A DNA stretch of 64,000 bases from a bacterium. Its GTDB lineage: Bacteria; Patescibacteriota; Saccharimonadia; CAILAD01; GCA-016700035. Position 1 is the first letter of the stretch. Every line of letters starts with the position of its first letter. The notes under the pieces are model-generated. The model was not told where the DNA came from. It saw only the letters and a list, made by a program, of their open reading frames with translations, and ran no database searches. This document shows, one piece after another, positions 29,165 to 63,885 of this stretch. The stretch is taken from NCBI GenBank assembly GCA_016700035.1, contig CP064998.1, positions 526,790 through 590,789 of the forward strand, read 5' to 3'. Both the position numbers and the translations under genes were made by a program.

Positions 29165-29249
29165 TGGTGCGGATGAAAGGACTCGAACCTTCACGTCTTG
29201 CGACACTAGCTCCTAAGGCTAGCGTGTCTACCAATTCCACCACATCCGC
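29165..29249 (-). tRNA. tRNA-Leu (anticodon TAG), 85 nt with long variable arm and encoded CCA
   Basis: It was folded by hand. The acceptor stem is GCGGATG/CATCCGC. The anticodon stem is CTAGC/GCTAG with loop CTTAGGA. The T-arm is GTTCGAGTC. Confidence 0.85.
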
Positions 29250-52297: not shown

Positions 52298-52430
52298 CAT
52301 ACTGGCAGATACTCTATCAATAGAAGAGTGTCTGCCACTTTTATTAAATTACCATAAAGAATAATTAGCGCAAGAATGACCTTGCACAGGATAAATAAAA
52401 AATATATAGGTTTACTTATCTAATATATTA

Positions 52431-52733
52431 TTACTTTGGAGTGGTTGTTTGAGTTGTGGCATTCTCCTGAACGGAACGAATAAAATCACCAATATACGGC
52501 AAACCACCAAATACTGCTACCAGCCAACCTAATAAAATAATTGCTAGAGCGACCCCAATAGTGAGGCCAATACCGCGATAGATACCAGCTCGAAAATTCA
52601 ACCAAGCAAAGCGCCATTTATCATTTAAAAGGTTAACAAACTCCTCAGCGCCTACCAGGTTTGCTGCCTGCTCTGCAGTATCTAATGTTTGAGCTCTTGA
52701 AGCTGTTTTACTATTTTTTGGATGATTTAGCAC
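52431..52733 (-). CDS. small membrane protein, 100 aa
   Basis: A single long hydrophobic segment (GIGLTIGVALAIILLGWLVAVFGGL). It lies downstream of the YtxH-like gene. Confidence 0.4.
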   Translation of the reverse strand: MLNHPKNSKTASRAQTLDTAEQAANLVGAEEFVNLLNDKWRFAWLNFRAGIYRGIGLTIGVALAIILLGWLVAVFGGLPYIGDFIRSVQENATTQTTTPK

Positions 52734-53232
52734 GGGCTGCTGGTTTATTAGTGGTCTTCTTAACTGGCTTACTGACTGATCCAGCTACCTTATCGGCTGA
52801 TTTCTTAACTTCTTTTGAAAGCTTAGTAGCCTCACGTTTGGTTGATGTACCAATCTTCTTACCAAGCACTTCCAGCTCTTCAGCCACCGCTTTAGCCTCG
52901 ACCATTAATTTCTTAGCTTCCTCTAAAAGATCGTCTTTAATATCGCCAGATGCACTAGATAACTTAAGCGCAACAGCGCTCATCTGCTCTTTAAGCTTCT
53001 CAGCTCGACGCATCAATTCCTTAGTCTCTTTAACAGAATCGTCCTTAACGCGCACACTAGCTTCTCTAACTTTTTCTAGTCCAGCAGAAAGCTGATCTTT
53101 CGCTTCATCAAAACCCTTACCAATATCTTCGCGAGTTTCCTTACCACTCTGTGGAGCAAACAATAATGCGCCGATTCCCGCTACTAACGCCCCAAGCCCC
53201 AAGCCTTTTAAAAAACCACCTTTTTTTGACAT
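52711..53232 (-). CDS. YtxH-like stress protein (N-terminal Gly-zipper helix + coiled coil)
   Basis: GFLKGLGLGALVAGIGALLFAPQSGKETRED is a YtxH-type N-terminus. The remainder is Lys/Glu-rich coiled coil. Confidence 0.6.
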   Translation of the reverse strand: MSKKGGFLKGLGLGALVAGIGALLFAPQSGKETREDIGKGFDEAKDQLSAGLEKVREASVRVKDDSVKETKELMRRAEKLKEQMSAVALKLSSASGDIKDDLLEEAKKLMVEAKAVAEELEVLGKKIGTSTKREATKLSKEVKKSADKVAGSVSKPVKKTTNKPAARAKSSKK

Positions 53233-53234
53233 AA

Positions 53235-53498
53235 CTATCTCCTTTTTCGCTTATTTCCTGATGTGGCGCGCATTACTTGAGCAAATATGGCGCTCATTGT
53301 TACTGGATTAATTATCTTATCTTTTATCTCATGCACAATATCAGTAGCTGTTTTTGTGCCATCTTGAGCCAATTCAGCAACATATTGAACCGTTTTAAGG
53401 AGTTTTTTGGTCGCTATAAAGACTGCTATCATAATCCCCAAAAGCACAAGTACAGCAATTGACATGACGATAATCAGAATAAATAATGTAGTTTCCAT
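53235..53498 (-). CDS. DUF948-like small membrane protein
   Basis: 87 aa with an N-terminal TM helix and a charged helix. It has the typical partner position upstream of YtxH. Confidence 0.5.
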   Translation of the reverse strand: METTLFILIIVMSIAVLVLLGIMIAVFIATKKLLKTVQYVAELAQDGTKTATDIVHEIKDKIINPVTMSAIFAQVMRATSGNKRKRR

Positions 53499-53501
53499 AG
53501 T

Positions 53502-54158
53502 TTAAATCCTTTTCTTCCGTCTTATTGTACCAGTTTTAGTAGCATTCAGGCGAGGTTTTACAACCCGCTGTTTTTGAACTGTACTGCGAGTTGCTCGCTC
53601 AAGTAGTGTAAAAGAATTTCGATCAATCACGCTATTTGGCACAACAAAAATCCTACCAGCACTATCTTTCAGGCGACTTTTACGCGTATCCATATCAACG
53701 ATAACCCCCTCAATTTTCTGGTCAAGAGGCCCCACTCGTACCTTATCACCAATTCTAAAATGCCTATCTCGAGCTAGATTAAGACCCGAAATTGTGTCGC
53801 CAACTGTAGCCGAAAAGCCTTGTGCAAATGCCAGCGCCAGCACTGCAAATGCTCCAGACATCGCCAAGGCAACGTTAGATAATCCGGCCAACTGCAGTAA
53901 AGCGATGGAGAGCAAAATCCATAGCACCATATCAAGGAGCTTAACGCTAACCTTAATCATGCCGCGGGGCAGCTTAGCTAAACCTAACGCCCGAGTTAAC
54001 ACCTTAGACAGTACACGGATTGCAATAAAGCCAATAATAAAAAGCAAAATCGCCTTCGGTATACTCGGGGCCGTCCCCCCTAGCCATACAGTAACTGGCT
54101 CCAGCAACGTATGGGCTGAATTGGCAATATCCTGCTGAGCGGCGGCGAGATAAATCAT
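53502..54158 (-). CDS. small-conductance mechanosensitive channel (MscS family)
   Basis: TM helices followed by an MscS beta-domain-like region (RIGDKVRVGPLDQKIEGVIVDMDTRKSRL). Confidence 0.6.
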   Translation of the reverse strand: MIYLAAAQQDIANSAHTLLEPVTVWLGGTAPSIPKAILLFIIGFIAIRVLSKVLTRALGLAKLPRGMIKVSVKLLDMVLWILLSIALLQLAGLSNVALAMSGAFAVLALAFAQGFSATVGDTISGLNLARDRHFRIGDKVRVGPLDQKIEGVIVDMDTRKSRLKDSAGRIFVVPNSVIDRNSFTLLERATRSTVQKQRVVKPRLNATKTGTIRRKKRI

Positions 54159-54174
54159 ATCAATACTATACCGC

Positions 54175-55632
54175 TTAAGCTGACTCTAGGGTAGCCCTAA
54201 CAATTTTATTTACTACCTGCGGATTGGCCTGCCCCTTCGTCTCTTTCATCGCTTGACCCACAAGAAACCCTAGTGCCTTTGCCTGTCCAGCTTGATAGTC
54301 GGCAACTGCCTGTGGGTTAGCCTTGATTATTACCTCAACAATCGCGACTAAAGCTCCTTCATCGGAGATTTGCTCAATCCCCATACGTTGCATAATTTCA
54401 TCAGGAGCATCATCGGTTTTACATATTTCAGCAAAAATCTGCTTAGCTTGACTAGAGGAAATGTCGCCAGCAAGCTCCAATTCAATTAGGCGTGCCAATT
54501 GCTCAGATGTGAATGGCGTATTAATAGTTGAGGCAGCATTATCGTCGCCGGCAGTTTGCGCTTTAATCCAAGCCTGATATTCACCCACTAACCAATTAAC
54601 TAATTTGCGCTCACCCTTGCCTGCTACCAACTTGCGCGTTTCGGTAAAAAATCTAGCAGTATTTTGCTGCTTGATGAGCACATCTTGCTCATCAACACTT
54701 AGTCCCAACTCCACCAGCTCGCGCCGAATTGCAATCGGCAAAGGAATTGTTTTAATATGCGCTTCTTTTTCAAGCATTGCAGTTGTCACTACGATTGGTG
54801 GAATATCAGGCTCCGGAAAATACCGATAGTCGTGCGCTTCTTCTTTAGAGCGCTGAGAGAATGTCTTACCTTTCGCATCATCAAAACCTCGTGTCTCCTG
54901 GTCTATCTCGCCACCCTTTTCAAGTATTTCGATTTGGCGACCAATTTCGTACTTCAAAGCTCGCTCAGCATTACGAAAACTATTTAGATTCTTCAGCTCA
55001 GTTCTGGTACCAAGTGAGTTATTCCGAGAAACCGAAACATTTAGATCGAACTTCATATTGCCATGTTGCATATCTCCGTGCGTTACCCCAAGTGTTGTGG
55101 CAATTGCATATATTTCCTCCAGATAGCGCCGAGCTTCGTAGGGTGTATGCATATCTGGATAGGACACAATCTCCAGTAGTGGTGTACCAGCTCGATTGAG
55201 GTCCACCAAAGAATAGTCCTTGCCAGCCGGATGGATGAGCTTACCAGCATCCTCTTCCAAGTGCGCTCGTTCAATACGAACCTTGCAAAACTTACCGTCG
55301 ACCAATATTTCAATATAGCCCTCTTCAATAATTGGCTGGTCAAACTGAGTAATTTGATAGCCCTTGGGATTATCGGGATAAAAATAATTTTTGCGATCAA
55401 ACTTGGTATGCTCACGAATTTTAGCGTTCAAACCATACCCCAAGCGAATAGCTAGCTGTACAGCCTGGGCATTTGGTAGCGGCAAAGTACCCGGATAAGC
55501 CAAGCAAATGGGGCAAACGTGAGTATTGGGCTCAGCAGTTTTTGAGTCATTATCACAAGCACAAAACATCTTCGATTTTGTGGCTAGCTGAACATGGATT
55601 TCTATACCAATAGTTGGCTTATATTCACTCAT
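54175..55632 (-). CDS. gatB: Asp/Glu-tRNA amidotransferase subunit B
   Basis: MSEYKPTIGIEIHVQL is a canonical GatB N-terminus. 485 aa. Confidence 0.92.
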   Translation of the reverse strand: MSEYKPTIGIEIHVQLATKSKMFCACDNDSKTAEPNTHVCPICLAYPGTLPLPNAQAVQLAIRLGYGLNAKIREHTKFDRKNYFYPDNPKGYQITQFDQPIIEEGYIEILVDGKFCKVRIERAHLEEDAGKLIHPAGKDYSLVDLNRAGTPLLEIVSYPDMHTPYEARRYLEEIYAIATTLGVTHGDMQHGNMKFDLNVSVSRNNSLGTRTELKNLNSFRNAERALKYEIGRQIEILEKGGEIDQETRGFDDAKGKTFSQRSKEEAHDYRYFPEPDIPPIVVTTAMLEKEAHIKTIPLPIAIRRELVELGLSVDEQDVLIKQQNTARFFTETRKLVAGKGERKLVNWLVGEYQAWIKAQTAGDDNAASTINTPFTSEQLARLIELELAGDISSSQAKQIFAEICKTDDAPDEIMQRMGIEQISDEGALVAIVEVIIKANPQAVADYQAGQAKALGFLVGQAMKETKGQANPQVVNKIVRATLESA

Positions 55633-56087
55633 ACCAGCTTAACTCCCAGATCAGAAATAGCTCGACCCAATGCAGCAATAGCATTAGTAACTTGCGGCTT
55701 AACAATATCAACATGAACATCATGAGCCACTTGGTTACGTAATTTATGCGCCGACCACACGCCATTGAGATCGGAAAAACGATCTCCATGATGCTTTAAG
55801 CGATCACCCATGGTTTCACCAGTAAAGCCTTGGGCGCGCATTACATAATCGAGTAATTTATCGGCCTCCATCAAGGCATTTTTTAATCCCATACCACCCT
55901 GTCCTTGCATGTGTGAAATCTCAACCCAACGCTGACGGACTAACTCGGCATCAAGTGTTGGTCGAATTGGATTATCACCTGCAATATCATTATTGTCGTG
56001 CGATAATCGTGAAGTATCGCCTTTACGCATATAGGCCAGTAACCCACCAATGACTATCACTGCCAAAATAACCGATACAAACGTCAT
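55629..56087 (-). CDS. membrane-anchored hypothetical protein with HEPN-like Rx4H motif
   Basis: An N-terminal TM helix (FVSVILAVIVIGGLLAY). The C-terminal motif HKLRNQVAH has R-x4-H. Its start and stop overlap gatA and gatB by 4 nt each. Confidence 0.5.
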   Translation of the reverse strand: MTFVSVILAVIVIGGLLAYMRKGDTSRLSHDNNDIAGDNPIRPTLDAELVRQRWVEISHMQGQGGMGLKNALMEADKLLDYVMRAQGFTGETMGDRLKHHGDRFSDLNGVWSAHKLRNQVAHDVHVDIVKPQVTNAIAALGRAISDLGVKLV

Positions 56088-57508
56088 AACATAACCTTGT
56101 CTAGTTTTACATTTAGTATTTGCTCAGCTTGAGAGGCTACAGTAAATAATTGAGCCTCACCTTTTTGTGGTGCCATTATCTGCAAGCCCAGCGGCATAGC
56201 ATCAATTCCTTGGATTGGCAAAGAAAGAGCAGGAATACCCGCTAAATTAGCCGCCACAGTCATAATATCTGCCAAATACATCTCGGTTGGATTAGTGGAA
56301 TGTTCACCAAACTTAAAAGCCTCAGTCGGCGTAGTGGGACCAATTAAAATATCGAATTCCGAGAACGCCTTATCAAAATCCCTGCATATTAAGGTTCGTA
56401 ATTGCATAGCTTTTTTATAATACGCATCATAATATCCGGCCGATAGCGCATAAGTTCCGGTCAATATTCGACGCTTAACCTCTGGACCAAAAAACATGCC
56501 TCGGGTAGCCGAGTACATAGCTTCTAGACCGCCCGAAGATTCGGCGGTTGAGCCATAACGAATACCATCATAGCGCTCTAGATTTGATGAAATTTCCGAT
56601 GGAGTTAGTACGTAGTAGCAAGGCAGAGCAAATTCCAGGCTCGACAATGACACCTCCACAAGTTCCCAGCCAGAGTCCCGTAGTTGCGAGAAAACCGCAT
56701 TATATTGTGCGCTAACTTCGTCACTTAAATATTCTACATATTCTCGCACCACTCCAATCCGCCTGAGCTGGTTATCATAGGTGTCAGTAGCTTCAGAGGA
56801 GATTGTTGTGGCATCCATTGGGTCCTGACCGGCCATAATATCGGTCAGTAGCTCCGCATCTTCTACAGTGTGCGCAAACGGACCAACTACATCAAGAGAA
56901 CTAGCCATAGCAACCACACCGTAGCGACTAATCAGGCCATAGGTTGGCTTAACCCCCACTACCCCACAATAGCTGGCTGGCTGACGAATTGACCCTCCTG
57001 TATCGGTACCGATGGAAAATAGCCCAATTCCAGCCGCTAGAGCCGCTGCCGATCCACCAGAGCTACCACCCGGTACTCGACTAAGATCGCGCGGATTATG
57101 ACTTGGCCCATAGGCCGAATATTCAGTCGATCCGCCATGCGCATACTCATCCTGATTAACTTTAGCTATTAAAATTGCCCCTTCGGCCTCGAGCTTAGCA
57201 ACTGCTGTTGCGGTGTATGGCGCAACAAAAGTATCGAGCATCTTTGAGGCGGCTGTAGTGCGAACCCCATCAACTAAGAACATGTCTTTCGCCGTAAAAG
57301 GAATTCCTTCTAGCCGACCTAACTTCTCACCATTCTTGCGTCGTTCGTCACTGGCTCGAGCAGTGGCTAGAGCCCGTTCATCAAGTCGAGTTAGTACCGA
57401 TGCAACTTTCTCATCTACTGCGTCAATCCGCTCAAAAGCTTGGCGCACCAAATCAGTGGCCGTCAAATCACCCTGCTCGAGCTTCTTGAGCGCTTCAGCA
57501 ATTGTCAT
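56084..57508 (-). CDS. gatA: Glu-tRNA(Gln) amidotransferase subunit A
   Basis: Amidase signature GGSSGGSAAALA. 474 aa. Confidence 0.92.
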   Translation of the reverse strand: MTIAEALKKLEQGDLTATDLVRQAFERIDAVDEKVASVLTRLDERALATARASDERRKNGEKLGRLEGIPFTAKDMFLVDGVRTTAASKMLDTFVAPYTATAVAKLEAEGAILIAKVNQDEYAHGGSTEYSAYGPSHNPRDLSRVPGGSSGGSAAALAAGIGLFSIGTDTGGSIRQPASYCGVVGVKPTYGLISRYGVVAMASSLDVVGPFAHTVEDAELLTDIMAGQDPMDATTISSEATDTYDNQLRRIGVVREYVEYLSDEVSAQYNAVFSQLRDSGWELVEVSLSSLEFALPCYYVLTPSEISSNLERYDGIRYGSTAESSGGLEAMYSATRGMFFGPEVKRRILTGTYALSAGYYDAYYKKAMQLRTLICRDFDKAFSEFDILIGPTTPTEAFKFGEHSTNPTEMYLADIMTVAANLAGIPALSLPIQGIDAMPLGLQIMAPQKGEAQLFTVASQAEQILNVKLDKVML

Positions 57509-57801
57509 TAGCCAAGCACTCGCTTAACTACAATATAGCCATTTTCATGGCGTGGCGCAGATTGCAAAAGTCTTTCTGGATTTACAGAGGATGGCTTTAC
57601 GACATCTTCCCGTAAAACATCCTGAAGGCCAGTCACTTGACTAGTCGGCTCAACATTATCTGTCTGAGTAGCCTGCATAGCGTCTACTAAATGTAATATT
57701 TGACCAACCCCCTGCGTAGTAGCTCGCGCATCATCATCAGAAAATGCAATCCGCGCCAAACGGGCAACGTGGGCAATTTTTTCTTCACTTACTTGGCTCA
57801 T
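57508..57801 (-). CDS. gatC: Asp/Glu-tRNA amidotransferase subunit C
   Basis: 97 aa. It lies upstream of gatA with a 1-nt overlap. The sequence is GatC-like. Confidence 0.8.
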   Translation of the reverse strand: MSQVSEEKIAHVARLARIAFSDDDARATTQGVGQILHLVDAMQATQTDNVEPTSQVTGLQDVLREDVVKPSSVNPERLLQSAPRHENGYIVVKRVLG

Positions 57802-57846
57802 ATCAAACTATATTATACCAGTAAAACCAATATCTGTAAGACACTT

Positions 57847-58968
57847 CTATTGATAGCGCTGGGAATTAACTGCCCACTGCTTAGTGGAGGAATTTTGACT
57901 AACCAAATAGGCATAGGTCTGAGTATAGGTGGTGTCAGCCGAATAATCCGACTTTGAAACAAACGTAATAGTTTCAATAACTTCATACTGATCACCTTTT
58001 TTGTCGGTATTGACGCGTCGATATGTTGTCGGATAGTTGTATTGTCGACTAGACGAAGTCACGTCAGAAAAATTATATTCAGCCGCAAAAGCATCAGTCA
58101 TATACTTCCGCATCTCTGCCACATTGCCAGCAATATAGGCTTGCGTCCAAAGCGAAACTGCTTCTTCGGCATTAGCCTTATCTTGCTTAGCCTGATCTTC
58201 TTGTGATTTTTGAGCATCCTGCTTGGCTTTTTCTTCATCCTGAGCTGTCTGATAAGCTTCGGTCACTGTGGCGTAACGTTCATTAAGCTTAAAAAAGTCA
58301 TCTGGATAAAAACCCTGTAAATAACTAATTTGCTTCTGTACGTCCTCAAGTGCTAATTTTGTTGCAGTAGCAACTGAGCTCAATTCATTAAGCTGAGCCT
58401 CATCAACATCTTTTAAATTAGCTGCCTGATCTTTGGCTATCTCGACATATTTATCGAGTTGATCCAAGCCTTTCAAATATTCAACTTTTGTTGTCTTATC
58501 ACCCAGTAGCTCCGGCATTTTCTGAGTAGTAGCCTGGCTATCATTAACTTTGTTCTGCATATCCAAAAGACTTTTTTCAACATCACCAAAGCTCGTGTAA
58601 GTTGCCTGCTCAGCATTAGTCGTGACGAGCTCTGAGGCTGCAATCAACTCACGCCAATTTTTACTATAATATTCCTGCGCTAGCGTACGATTACGCCACG
58701 CCATAAAGCCCAGTCCAACTGCAATCAAAACTACCACAGACAGCAGTAAAAATAACCAAACCTTAGGCCTCTTGTGCCATGGCCGAAGGTCAGTTGTCTT
58801 CTTTTCCATGCCATCGGTTAGCTCTACCGGAGCATGCGACTCAAGATTTGAATCTTCCACGATATCATCTTCTTTATCTAGTCCAAGCTGGTCTTCCAGT
58901 ATTGGTTCAGTCGGCTTTTTATTGTCACTCATTACTCTTATGGTACGCCAAGTTATTTTAGCCGACAA
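57847..58968 (-). CDS. hypothetical membrane-anchored coiled-coil protein (start possibly internal Met MSDNKK)
   Basis: One TM helix (VWLFLLLSVVVLIAVGLGFMAW) and a long Gln/Lys/Glu-rich coiled coil. The C-terminal region may have an NTF2-like fold. Confidence 0.4.
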   Translation of the reverse strand: MSAKITWRTIRVMSDNKKPTEPILEDQLGLDKEDDIVEDSNLESHAPVELTDGMEKKTTDLRPWHKRPKVWLFLLLSVVVLIAVGLGFMAWRNRTLAQEYYSKNWRELIAASELVTTNAEQATYTSFGDVEKSLLDMQNKVNDSQATTQKMPELLGDKTTKVEYLKGLDQLDKYVEIAKDQAANLKDVDEAQLNELSSVATATKLALEDVQKQISYLQGFYPDDFFKLNERYATVTEAYQTAQDEEKAKQDAQKSQEDQAKQDKANAEEAVSLWTQAYIAGNVAEMRKYMTDAFAAEYNFSDVTSSSRQYNYPTTYRRVNTDKKGDQYEVIETITFVSKSDYSADTTYTQTYAYLVSQNSSTKQWAVNSQRYQ

Positions 58969-62827: not shown

Positions 62828-63580
62828 TTATTTCTTAGCTTCAGCTTTTTCGTCAAAGCTCACATCAACTGGTTTTTCAGCAGCCGCTCGTTCACTCTCT
62901 GATACTTCAAAGAATTCATACGGTGTGAAGCCAAGAGACTTAGCAAACATATTAGTTGGAAAAACCTTTAGCTTAATATTAAAGTCACGCACATTACCAT
63001 TGTAGAAACGGCGAGAGGCTTGAATCTTATCTTCAGTATCAACTAGCTCTTGCTGTAATTGTAAAAAATTCTCGTTCGCCTTGAGGTCTGGGTAGTTTTC
63101 CGACACCGCAAACAAGCTCTTTAGCGCACCGGATAGCATATTATCAGCTTCAGCCTGCTTAGAGAGATCGCCATCGGGAGCAGCCATAGCCAGATTACGA
63201 GCCTTAGTTACTTCAGTGAGGACAGACTTTTCATGCTTAGCATAGCCTTTTACTGACTCCACTAAGTTTGGAATCAGATCCAAGCGTCGCTTCATCTGCA
63301 CTGTAATATCAGAGAGCGCCTCATCGCTGCGGGTATGCGCTTTAACTAGTCCATTATAGGTCATCCAGAGCCAAATAGCCCCAATTGCCACAACTGCTAA
63401 AATAATATAAACAATCAGCATCAATAAATCCTTTCTTTTGCCCTCATTATAGACTAAGGTTCGATAAAATAGAATGGAGGCACCTACCGGAATTGAACCG
63501 GTGTACGCGGTTTTGCAGACCGCTGCGTAACCACTCCGCCAAGGTGCCAGTATTTTTGACGTGCGCCCATTATACCGCAT
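62828..63580 (-). CDS. lemA: LemA family protein. True start almost certainly the internal Met at about 63420, because the N-terminal 53 codons of the ORF overlap tRNA-Cys.
   Basis: An N-terminal TM helix (MLIVYIILAVVAIGAIWLW) followed by the LemA-like region NGLVKAHTRSDEALSDI. An htpX neighbour is a conserved pairing. Confidence 0.7.
   Translation of the reverse strand: MRYNGRTSKILAPWRSGYAAVCKTAYTGSIPVGASILFYRTLVYNEGKRKDLLMLIVYIILAVVAIGAIWLWMTYNGLVKAHTRSDEALSDITVQMKRRLDLIPNLVESVKGYAKHEKSVLTEVTKARNLAMAAPDGDLSKQAEADNMLSGALKSLFAVSENYPDLKANENFLQLQQELVDTEDKIQASRRFYNGNVRDFNIKLKVFPTNMFAKSLGFTPYEFFEVSESERAAAEKPVDVSFDEKAEAKK
63475..63548 (-). tRNA. tRNA-Cys (anticodon GCA), 74 nt incl. CCA
   Basis: It was folded by hand. 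The acceptor stem is GGCACCT/AGGTGCC. The anticodon stem is GCGGT/ACCGC with loop CTGCAAA. The T-loop is TTCAATT. Confidence 0.8.
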
Positions 63581-63809: not shown

Positions 63810-63885
63810 GGCACCTTAGCTCAGTTGGTAGAGCGACGGCCTGAAGAGCCGTGCGTCGTTGGTTCGATTCCAACAGGTGCCACCA
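63810..63885 (+). tRNA. tRNA-Phe (anticodon GAA), 76 nt incl. CCA
   Basis: The D-arm is GCTCAGTTGGTAGAGC. The anticodon stem is ACGGC/GCCGT with loop CTGAAGA. The T-arm is GGTTCGATTCC. The acceptor stem is GGCACCT/AGGTGCC. Confidence 0.88.

Follow-up and report, generated by a model that had tools for sequence, protein, structure and literature searches.

A membrane-anchored protein of the HEPN superfamily encoded between gatA and gatB in Saccharimonadia

The 64,000-nucleotide stretch of contig CP064998.1 analysed here (assembly GCA_016700035.1, class Saccharimonadia; positions 526,790 to 590,789 of the forward strand), called the window below, carries the genes of the amidotransferase GatCAB on its minus strand. 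An open reading frame (ORF) of 152 amino acids, for which the name X is used, lies between gatA and gatB. X is predicted to consist of an N-terminal transmembrane helix, a flexible tether, and a helical domain of the HEPN superfamily. The Gat subunits have been named by NCBIfam models, all of which match above their cut-offs. The genes and the parts of X have the following positions in the window:

57508-57801, minus strand: gatC, 97 amino acids, the first gene of the cluster; TIGR00135, 71.3 bits against a cut-off of 47.1
56084-57508, minus strand: gatA, 474 amino acids; TIGR00132, E-value 1.1e-164, 548.7 bits against a cut-off of 481.1
56084-56087, minus strand: overlap of the gatA stop codon (TGA) and the X start codon (ATG), ATGA; the plus strand reads tcat
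55629-56087, minus strand: X, a 152-amino-acid membrane-anchored HEPN-family protein
56022-56084, minus strand: predicted transmembrane helix of X, residues 2-22, from the AlphaFold2 helix and hydropathy; a signal anchor, N-terminus out and C-terminus in
55953-56021, minus strand: tether of X, residues 23-45, flexible, variable in length and poorly conserved
55632-55952, minus strand: HEPN domain of X, residues 46-152, from the trimmed AlphaFold2 model and Foldseek
55860-55862, minus strand: D76, an invariant acidic residue of helix 2 inside the A-D-K-L-L-D block
55722-55739, minus strand: Rx4H (RNxxxH) motif R117-N118-Q-V-A-H122; reverse complement CGT AAC CAA GTG GCT CAT
55629-55632, minus strand: overlap of the X stop codon (TGA) and the gatB start codon (ATG), ATGA; the plus strand reads tcat
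54175-55632, minus strand: gatB, 485 amino acids; NF004012, E-value 9.1e-178, 591.9 bits against a cut-off of 338

The stop codon of gatC overlaps the start codon of gatA by one nucleotide. The original prediction for this locus, made from the letters of the window, placed a 152-residue ORF between gatA and gatB with a four-nucleotide overlap on each side; the ORF list and the tcat at both junctions agree with it, and the sequence of X as first quoted, including HHGDRFSDLNGVWSAHKLRNQVAHDVHV, matches ORF 55629-56087 exactly. Its premise that gatCAB operons are normally contiguous was too strong, because a gene for a beta-lactamase, bro-1, lies between gatA and gatB of Moraxella catarrhalis (PMC8406222). 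The bro-1 gene is a recent insertion, unlike the class-wide conserved X. The overlapping codons suggest that X may be co-expressed stoichiometrically with GatCAB.

Homologues of X are numerous. A word-indexed search returned 190 of them, and a search of representative clusters (50% identity) gave 3,176 matches at E ≤ 1e-3 and 2,455 at E ≤ 1e-10. Among the matches listed (n = 150), the clusters are all short, with lengths of 81-215 and mostly 130-160 amino acids. The dN/dS of X relative to an 83%-identical orthologue in locus L012 is 0.06, at a dS of about 2 that is near saturation. The homologue numbers and the dN/dS indicate that X is a real gene and not a chance ORF. The curated libraries Pfam, NCBIfam and PADLOC contain no match to X, with Pfam giving none even at E ≤ 10, and the PHROGs matches are noise only. 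Sequence searches of the PDB returned nothing with X alone and only a chance match to RFC with a profile.

The full-length AlphaFold2 model of X, calculated from a 37-sequence alignment, contains a helix at residues 2-22, a disordered stretch with pLDDT below 50 at residues 25-40, and a confident helical domain. The trimmed model of residues 41-152 (63 sequences) has a pLDDT of 94.8 and a pTM of 0.88. It is composed of helices H1 (47-60), H2 (65-85), H3 (107-122), and H4 (130-146), and the insert between H2 and H3 (86-106) holds a short helix at 93-99. The best 11 Foldseek matches of the trimmed model in the PDB are all HEPN proteins, led by AF_0298 (2hsb; probability 1.00, TMq 0.66, root mean square deviation (rmsd) 3.3 Å) and including the HepT toxins 7ae6, 6m6w, 7bxo, 8yuf, and 8xdj as well as 1wty and 1o3u. 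The full-length model gives the same leading matches, plus artefactual matches of the transmembrane helix to cytochrome oxidase subunits. A region of a 310-residue viral protein in BFVD (A0A482IIS2) superposes on the HEPN domain of X better than any PDB entry, with TMq 0.71, rmsd 2.3 Å over 102 columns, probability 1.00, and E-value 0.13.

In the published definition of the HEPN superfamily (Anantharaman et al. 2013, PMC3710099), helix 3 ends in an Rx4-6H motif whose arginine is followed by a polar residue (N, D or H), helix 2 carries a conserved acidic residue close to the motif in space, and helices 2 and 3 are separated by an insert. The anatomy of X fits this definition in the layout of the helices, the insert, and the place of the motif, and D76 of helix 2 would be the acidic residue. 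Sub-threshold Pfam matches were obtained for relatives of X, of which 37 members were scanned: HEPN_Swt1 in six members, Csm6_HEPN in four, pEK499_p136, and, as the best, HEPN_RiboL-PSP with an E-value of 2e-4 and 21.7 bits against a threshold of 28.4. These weak matches, to four different HEPN families, fall on the motif-bearing C-terminal half of the relatives. We conclude that X represents a family that is new to the HEPN superfamily (Pfam clan CL0291 KNTase_C; 'Nucleotidyltransferase substrate binding subunit/domain' in ECOD), has not been curated, and has an intact catalytic signature. The HEPN-like domain of the original prediction has thus been borne out by the 11 matches and the fit to the definition: a non-HEPN fold had been named as the outcome that would speak against it, and Foldseek returned HEPN folds instead.

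The hydrophobic helix of the X family begins within the first few residues, and the best 19-residue segment has a mean Kyte-Doolittle value of 2.9 across 366 members. Ahead of the helix, the same members have on average 0.09 lysines and arginines, as against 4.5 in the 15 residues that follow it. By the positive-inside rule, this bias indicates a signal anchor with the N-terminus of X outside and its HEPN domain probably in the cytoplasm. The tether region is gapped and unconserved in the alignment, and it is shorter in relatives of 134-141 amino acids. The single N-terminal transmembrane helix followed by a soluble helical domain, as originally described, is seen in both the AlphaFold2 model and the hydropathy.

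The catalytic residues of HEPN enzymes are retained throughout the family. The conservation was evaluated in a 366-row alignment of X with 365 relatives drawn from two bacterial classes. No row lacks D76, W111 or H114, and R117, N118, and H122 are found in 365, the remaining row being gapped at the motif, so that the likeness to the RNxxxH of HepT noticed earlier holds across the family. Of the 365 relatives, 361 contain the pattern H[KR]xRNxxxH. D80 is conserved in 341 rows, and W54, A75, K77, G90, A113, and K115 in at least 95%. In the model, R117-N118-Q-V-A-H122 closes helix 3, and helix 2 carries the A75-D76-K77-L-L-D80 block, and hence both D76 and D80.

The conservation of the motif bears on whether the HEPN domain cleaves RNA or only binds a partner. 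X could be a non-catalytic adaptor, with its HEPN domain binding GatCAB, the transamidosome or tRNA and tethering it to the membrane. The coupled translation with GatA and GatB, the membrane anchor, and the flexible tether would suit such a function, and an adaptor sidesteps the toxicity of an unregulated ribonuclease. HEPN modules that serve for binding exist, for example the substrate-binding domains of nucleotidyltransferases (PMC3710099). Accessory proteins of GatCAB have a precedent in Hp0100 (QueH) from the Asn-transamidosome of Helicobacter pylori, a non-Gat protein that stimulates GatCAB and stabilises the transamidosome (PMC8406222). As an adaptor, X would have a comparable role. Unlike X, Hp0100 has an unrelated fold, is soluble, and its gene does not lie inside gatCAB. 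However, loss of all or part of the Rx4-6H motif is typical of HEPN domains that function as binding modules (PMC3710099), whereas X retains R, N, and H in 365 of 366 rows and D76 in every row, which is the pattern of active enzymes. Because X keeps the motif that binding-only domains usually lose, the adaptor is disfavoured and we consider it unlikely.

A counterpart of X has been included in a genome-wide study of Southlakia epibionticum ML1. SEML1_0535 (420 base pairs, a 139-residue 'hypothetical protein'; Wang et al. 2023, PMC10633639, Tables S1 and S2) lies between gatA (SEML1_0536) and gatB (SEML1_0534), with overlaps of 4 nucleotides and 1 nucleotide, and is flagged there as belonging to a core and Patescibacteria-enriched family (PMC10633639). 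The DPAM assignment places its residues 26-135 in ECOD e1wtyA1 at 0.99, in the nucleotidyltransferase substrate-binding group, which is the HEPN group (PMC10633639). From its position, length, and domain call, SEML1_0535 is almost certainly the orthologue of X. The transposon sequencing (Tn-seq) calls for SEML1_0535 are GD/GD/ES, from growth-defective to essential, with normalised reads decreasing from 126.6 to 5.9 and 2.8, and those for gatA and gatB are GD/ES/ES (PMC10633639).

The Southlakia protein has no Pfam match and carries the ProtNLM label 'DUF4145 domain-containing protein' (PMC10633639, Table S2). Membership of X in DUF4145 (PF13643) is not supported by any profile: the window protein has no match to Pfam at the permissive threshold given above, and PF13643 is absent among the matches listed for the 37 scanned members (25 of 34 families at E ≤ 1). 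SEML1_0535 appears in the supplementary tables of PMC10633639 and is not mentioned in its main text. Among the papers searched, none links HEPN with gatB, Saccharibacteria or Patescibacteria, and the 2013 survey of HEPN proteins (PMC3710099) does not mention amidotransferases or aminoacylation. An automated label in the supplement anticipates X in part, but there has been no description or discussion of the protein before.

The same tables contain neither 'asparagine-tRNA ligase' nor 'glutamine-tRNA ligase'; they have no entry with 'asparagine', and 'glutamine' occurs once, in Table S1, in the name of a release-factor methyltransferase (PMC10633639). Such a pattern agrees with the idea that Southlakia makes Asn-tRNA and Gln-tRNA through GatCAB only. 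RNase Y (SEML1_0712, NE/NE/GD) is listed as non-essential and RNase J as essential (PMC10633639). Since Southlakia encodes both enzymes, the idea that X stands in for an absent membrane RNase Y has been rejected.

The genomic context of X was scanned in one genome per GTDB species, in which at least 524 loci encode a relative of X; individual loci are denoted by L and a number. The best 80 of the at least 524 loci are almost all from Saccharibacteria/Saccharimonadia, including Nanosynbacter, Nanosyncoccus, and oral TM7, and tblastn with the Gat proteins of the window identified the order gatC-gatA-X-gatB in essentially all of them. Absence of the ORF from sister genomes had been considered a reason to abandon the original prediction; instead, the arrangement is present in about 80 species loci of Saccharimonadia. 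The junctions were counted in 93 loci that are not phylogenetically independent, as many are from oral Nanosynbacter species. The stop codon of gatA overlaps the start codon of X by four nucleotides in 39 loci and by one nucleotide in 34, together 73 of the 85 loci with both genes, and no other gene breaks this junction in any of the 85. The stop codon of X overlaps the start codon of gatB by four nucleotides in 21 loci and by one in 29, or 50 of the 86 loci with both genes.

The junction of X and gatB seems to be a tolerated insertion point. The inserts (L036, L039, L040, L044, L046, L049, L051, L053, L066, and L089) differ between lineages and, judged by motif inspection only, include histidine-phosphatase-like (RHGQSEAN), NUDIX-like, HD-like, GIY-YIG-like, pyridoxamine-oxidase-like, and HAD-like proteins. 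The gene coaE was considered as the insert of 0.5-1.3 kb in Saccharimonadia and rejected, since tblastn found no coaE there. Three loci with the Saccharibacteria-type order gatA-X-gatB are on contigs labelled as Nanoarchaeia archaeon (L043, DATIHE010000006.1), Magnetospirillaceae bacterium (L057, DATLJN010000125.1), and Parcubacteria (L036, JAHWKN010000011.1). Their X proteins are 42-46% identical to that of the window, and the contigs have probably been mislabelled or placed in the wrong bin.

A second clade of X, with a G-SLGEKLK signature, belongs by source names to Peregrinibacteria/Gracilibacteria. X adjoins gatB or lies near it in six of the eight loci of this clade: gatB follows X directly in L004 and L095, coaE and then gatB follow in L009, L093, and L096, and L091 has an additional small ORF on the opposite strand between coaE and gatB. 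The genes gatC and gatA are not near X in these loci. The proximity of X and gatB thus recurs in two deeply separated classes, yet it is not absolute. In Peregrinibacteria/Gracilibacteria, X is always preceded, within 0-40 nucleotides, by a gene for a conserved protein of about 191-208 amino acids with two N-terminal hydrophobic segments and a sub-threshold match to bPH_2 (best E-value 5e-4). It is also present in L094, L095, and L096, and its coordinates in the other loci are:

L091, 5390-5998: bPH-like gene
L093, 5407-5997: bPH-like gene
L092, 5407-5997: bPH-like gene
L009, 4405-4998: bPH-like gene

The block reads S26 peptidase (minus strand), then bPH-like gene, X, coaE, and gatB, with coaE as the usual gene after X, and in these bacteria X may have the bPH-like protein as its partner. 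In L095, the gene of P0323 (6001-6417, Candidatus Gracilibacteria) does not give the query when translated with table 11, which is consistent with the alternative code known in Gracilibacteria, where UGA is a sense codon.

The surroundings of the gat genes in the window are also conserved. Upstream of gatC are ligA and a 373-residue protein without a Pfam match. The latter, whose ORF at 57847-58968 (minus strand) separates ligA from gatC, is acidic in its N-terminal region and contains a single predicted transmembrane segment WLFLLLSVVVLIAVGLGFMAW and a long Lys/Glu/Gln-rich region that is probably a coiled coil; an unannotated ORF of 234 amino acids occupies the same position in L006. Downstream of gatB, four tightly packed genes on the same strand (52431-54158, minus strand) encode small membrane or stress-type proteins and are followed by dnaE. 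The four are an MscS-like protein of 218 amino acids that holds only the transmembrane part and beta-domain of MS_channel, a transmembrane protein of 87, YtxH of 173, and DUF5665 of 100, and the DUF5665 gene overlaps that of YtxH by 23 nucleotides. In L006 the run after gatB consists of MscS-like, two small ORFs, and DUF5665, and in L001 it is partial, with small ORFs and DUF5665 and no MscS call. The flanks of the cluster contain two candidate signals:

57812-57840, minus strand: promoter-like site a short way upstream of gatC, CTTACA-17-TATAAT extended by TG; weak
52368-52387, minus strand: terminator-like hairpin, the strongest downstream of the cluster, with an 8-pair stem and a T-rich tail, after the DUF5665 gene

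Promoter-like sites in the region are not above chance, with 17 found and 15.9 expected. The hairpin is possibly the end of the transcription unit, with weak scan statistics, and the hairpin scan of the region found no comparable site between gatA, X, and gatB. The transcription unit may consist of gatC-gatA-X-gatB and the four downstream genes.

This neighbourhood is the basis for a reading in which X is a housekeeping membrane-associated ribonuclease or RNA-binding protein unrelated to GatCAB, and owes its position to an ancient insertion that operon inertia has preserved in compact genomes. The synteny of the wider neighbourhood across Saccharimonadia, the four same-strand genes for small membrane proteins that follow gatB, the unrelated genes between X and gatB in about ten loci, and the two loci without gatB nearby all fit this explanation. 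So does the arrangement in Peregrinibacteria/Gracilibacteria, where X follows a bPH-like protein with two transmembrane segments and usually precedes coaE, with gatC and gatA not adjacent. By contrast, inertia does not readily account for the position of X next to or near gatB in two classes that are deeply separated and differ in the other neighbours, or for a gatA-X junction that is unbroken in 85 loci and has a 1- or 4-nucleotide overlap in 73. Moreover, with RNase Y and RNase J both present in Southlakia, there is no obvious gap for a general decay nuclease to fill. We regard a function unrelated to GatCAB as somewhat unlikely.

The only matches at the Rfam gathering level in the window are tRNA genes at 29168-29249 (minus strand), 63478-63548 (minus strand), and 63810-63882 (plus strand). 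The second of them lies inside a listed 250-residue ORF of the LemA family (62828-63580; Pfam match from residue 88), and the true start of that ORF is probably further downstream because the tRNA falls within it.

The HEPN proteins closest to X in fold are those associated with MNT nucleotidyltransferases (PF05168: AF_0298, 2hsb, and TM0613, 1o3u; HepT/DUF86: 7ae6, 6m6w, 7bxo, 8yuf, 8xdj, and 5yep). Like X, they have a single domain of about 110-140 amino acids, an Rx4H motif with N after R that ends helix 3, and an acidic residue in helix 2. X differs from them in its N-terminal membrane anchor and in its core conserved place inside gatCAB. Instead of a gene for an MntA-type nucleotidyltransferase, the neighbours of X are gatA and gatB, or the bPH-like gene and coaE or gatB. 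HepT is AMPylated at a tyrosine (Y104 of SO_3166) two residues after the R of Rx4H. The corresponding position 119 is Q, R or K in the X family, in which tyrosine occurs only at position 120, in 9 of 366 rows. The Pfam scans gave no match to PF05168 or PF01934, and membership of X in a specific described HEPN family (HepT/DUF86, PF05168 or DUF4145) is not supported.

The architecture of X is shared by Csx28 of type VI-B2 CRISPR-Cas13b systems, which has an N-terminal transmembrane helix, a cytoplasmic four-helix bundle, and an Rx4-6H-like motif (10.1101/2021.11.02.466367). However, the motif of Csx28 is divergent, with the arginine pointing away from the interface, and the protein forms a face-to-back octameric pore in cas13b-linked defence (10.1101/2021.11.02.466367). 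X has the canonical, invariant motif, there is no CRISPR gene in any of its loci, and Csx28 is not among the best 50 fold matches.

The likeness to HepT and to Csx28, whose HEPN-like domain is likewise cytoplasmic (10.1101/2021.11.02.466367), raises the question of whether X is a conflict or defence module, that is a HepT-like toxin, an abortive-infection HEPN protein or a Csx28-like membrane pore, that is present in the operon by chance. Its closest solved structures are indeed HepT toxins and MNT-associated HEPN proteins. However, the 96 loci contain no MNT or antitoxin gene, no cas13b, and no other defence neighbour. X holds one conserved position across two classes, with the pattern of a core gene and strong purifying selection; it lacks the tyrosine two residues after R, and its Southlakia counterpart is flagged as core and appears to be essential for fitness. 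The missing partner gene, the missing PADLOC match, and the core-gene behaviour lead us to reject toxin or defence as the main explanation, and we consider a defence function very improbable. The best explanation is that X is a housekeeping member of the HEPN superfamily and not a defence gene.

Membrane-anchored proteins with a related architecture are known. Eukaryotic Ire1, with its KEN domain, and the predicted C6orf70 family also use a single-pass anchor to place a HEPN ribonuclease at a membrane face, where it processes specific RNAs (PMC3710099). Unlike X, they are eukaryotic, multidomain (kinase and KEN) or specific to the endoplasmic reticulum, they are without a link to aminoacyl-tRNA, and no sequence relationship to X was detected. 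RNase Y is a housekeeping enzyme with an N-terminal transmembrane helix, a flexible region, and a cytoplasmic endoribonuclease domain. It resembles X in architecture only, because its catalytic core is formed by KH and HD domains, and it is present in Southlakia too, so that X is no substitute for it. X fails the defining tests of each specific family with which it has been compared (MNT-associated HEPN, Csx28, Ire1/C6orf70, and Hp0100). It represents a core HEPN family with a membrane anchor, encoded inside an operon for translation.

We tentatively propose, with a probability of about 0.45, that X is a membrane-tethered HEPN ribonuclease that faces the cytoplasm, is made together with GatCAB, and acts on RNA of this pathway, docks the enzyme at the membrane, or does both. 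The signal-anchor helix of X would insert into the cytoplasmic membrane with the N-terminus outside, and the HEPN domain, about 105 residues long, would be kept at its cytoplasmic face by a flexible tether of about 25 residues. Two copies of X may pair face to face, by analogy with the minimal HEPN proteins HepT and AF_0298. The paired R117-N118-x3-H122 motifs, together with D76 and H114/K115, could then make up an endoribonuclease site that works without metal and yields a 2',3'-cyclic phosphate. X would be translated from the message of gatA and gatB through the overlapping stop and start codons, and thus be made alongside GatCAB, presumably these organisms' only supplier of Asn-tRNA(Asn) and Gln-tRNA(Gln). 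As X is a membrane protein encoded mid-operon, its coupled translation may also bring the gat mRNA, together with GatA and GatB as they are being synthesised, to the membrane. The role of X would be to act on tRNA(Gln) and tRNA(Asn) or their misacylated forms, or to hold the amidotransferase at the membrane, or both.

In a more specific form, X would be a dedicated fourth component of a membrane-bound transamidosome in Patescibacteria. On a stall of amidation, it would cleave tRNA(Gln) and tRNA(Asn) or the misacylated versions of these, charged with Glu and Asp. A conserved co-operonic position with overlapping codons, as expected for a component of GatCAB, is found for X (73/85 and 50/86 junctions). 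We consider this specific form improbable. If it were true, fidelity or tRNA supply would be coupled to the availability of the amide donor at the membrane, in organisms that take amino acids from their hosts.

Several observations weigh against the proposal of a ribonuclease made together with GatCAB. A HEPN ribonuclease that is made constitutively is usually toxic, and no inhibitor partner of X is visible. No curated profile of Pfam, NCBIfam or PADLOC reaches its threshold, and the Foldseek E-values are weak, 0.03 at best; the weight of the Foldseek evidence is in the consistency of the HEPN matches, not in the E-values. The order ligA, gatCAXB, small membrane proteins, and dnaE is also kept in L006 and partly in L001, and because the whole region is syntenic across Saccharimonadia, the conserved position alone is weak evidence for a shared function of X and Gat. 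Unrelated ORFs split X from gatB in about ten Saccharimonadia loci, and L092 and L094 have coaE and no gatB within 4-6 kb downstream of X. The orthology of SEML1_0535 and X rests on position, length, and domain call, not on sequence, and the Tn-seq phenotype of SEML1_0535 could be a polar effect on gatB.

Of the bacterial HEPN proteins characterised to date, almost all are known as toxins or defence effectors, which stay silent until they are needed. X is unlike them: it has an invariant intact motif, is a core, vertically inherited, and membrane-anchored protein, and represents a Patescibacteria-enriched family. It appears to be required for fitness and is wedged in the operon of the apparent sole source of Asn-tRNA and Gln-tRNA in reduced genomes. 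If active, X would be a housekeeping HEPN ribonuclease of a kind not described in bacteria, and if it touches GatCAB or its tRNAs, it would be a new component of indirect aminoacylation. Saccharibacteria such as Southlakia and TM7x are now genetically tractable, so that these possibilities are directly testable, and establishing the function of X would give a role to a Patescibacteria-enriched family that currently has none.

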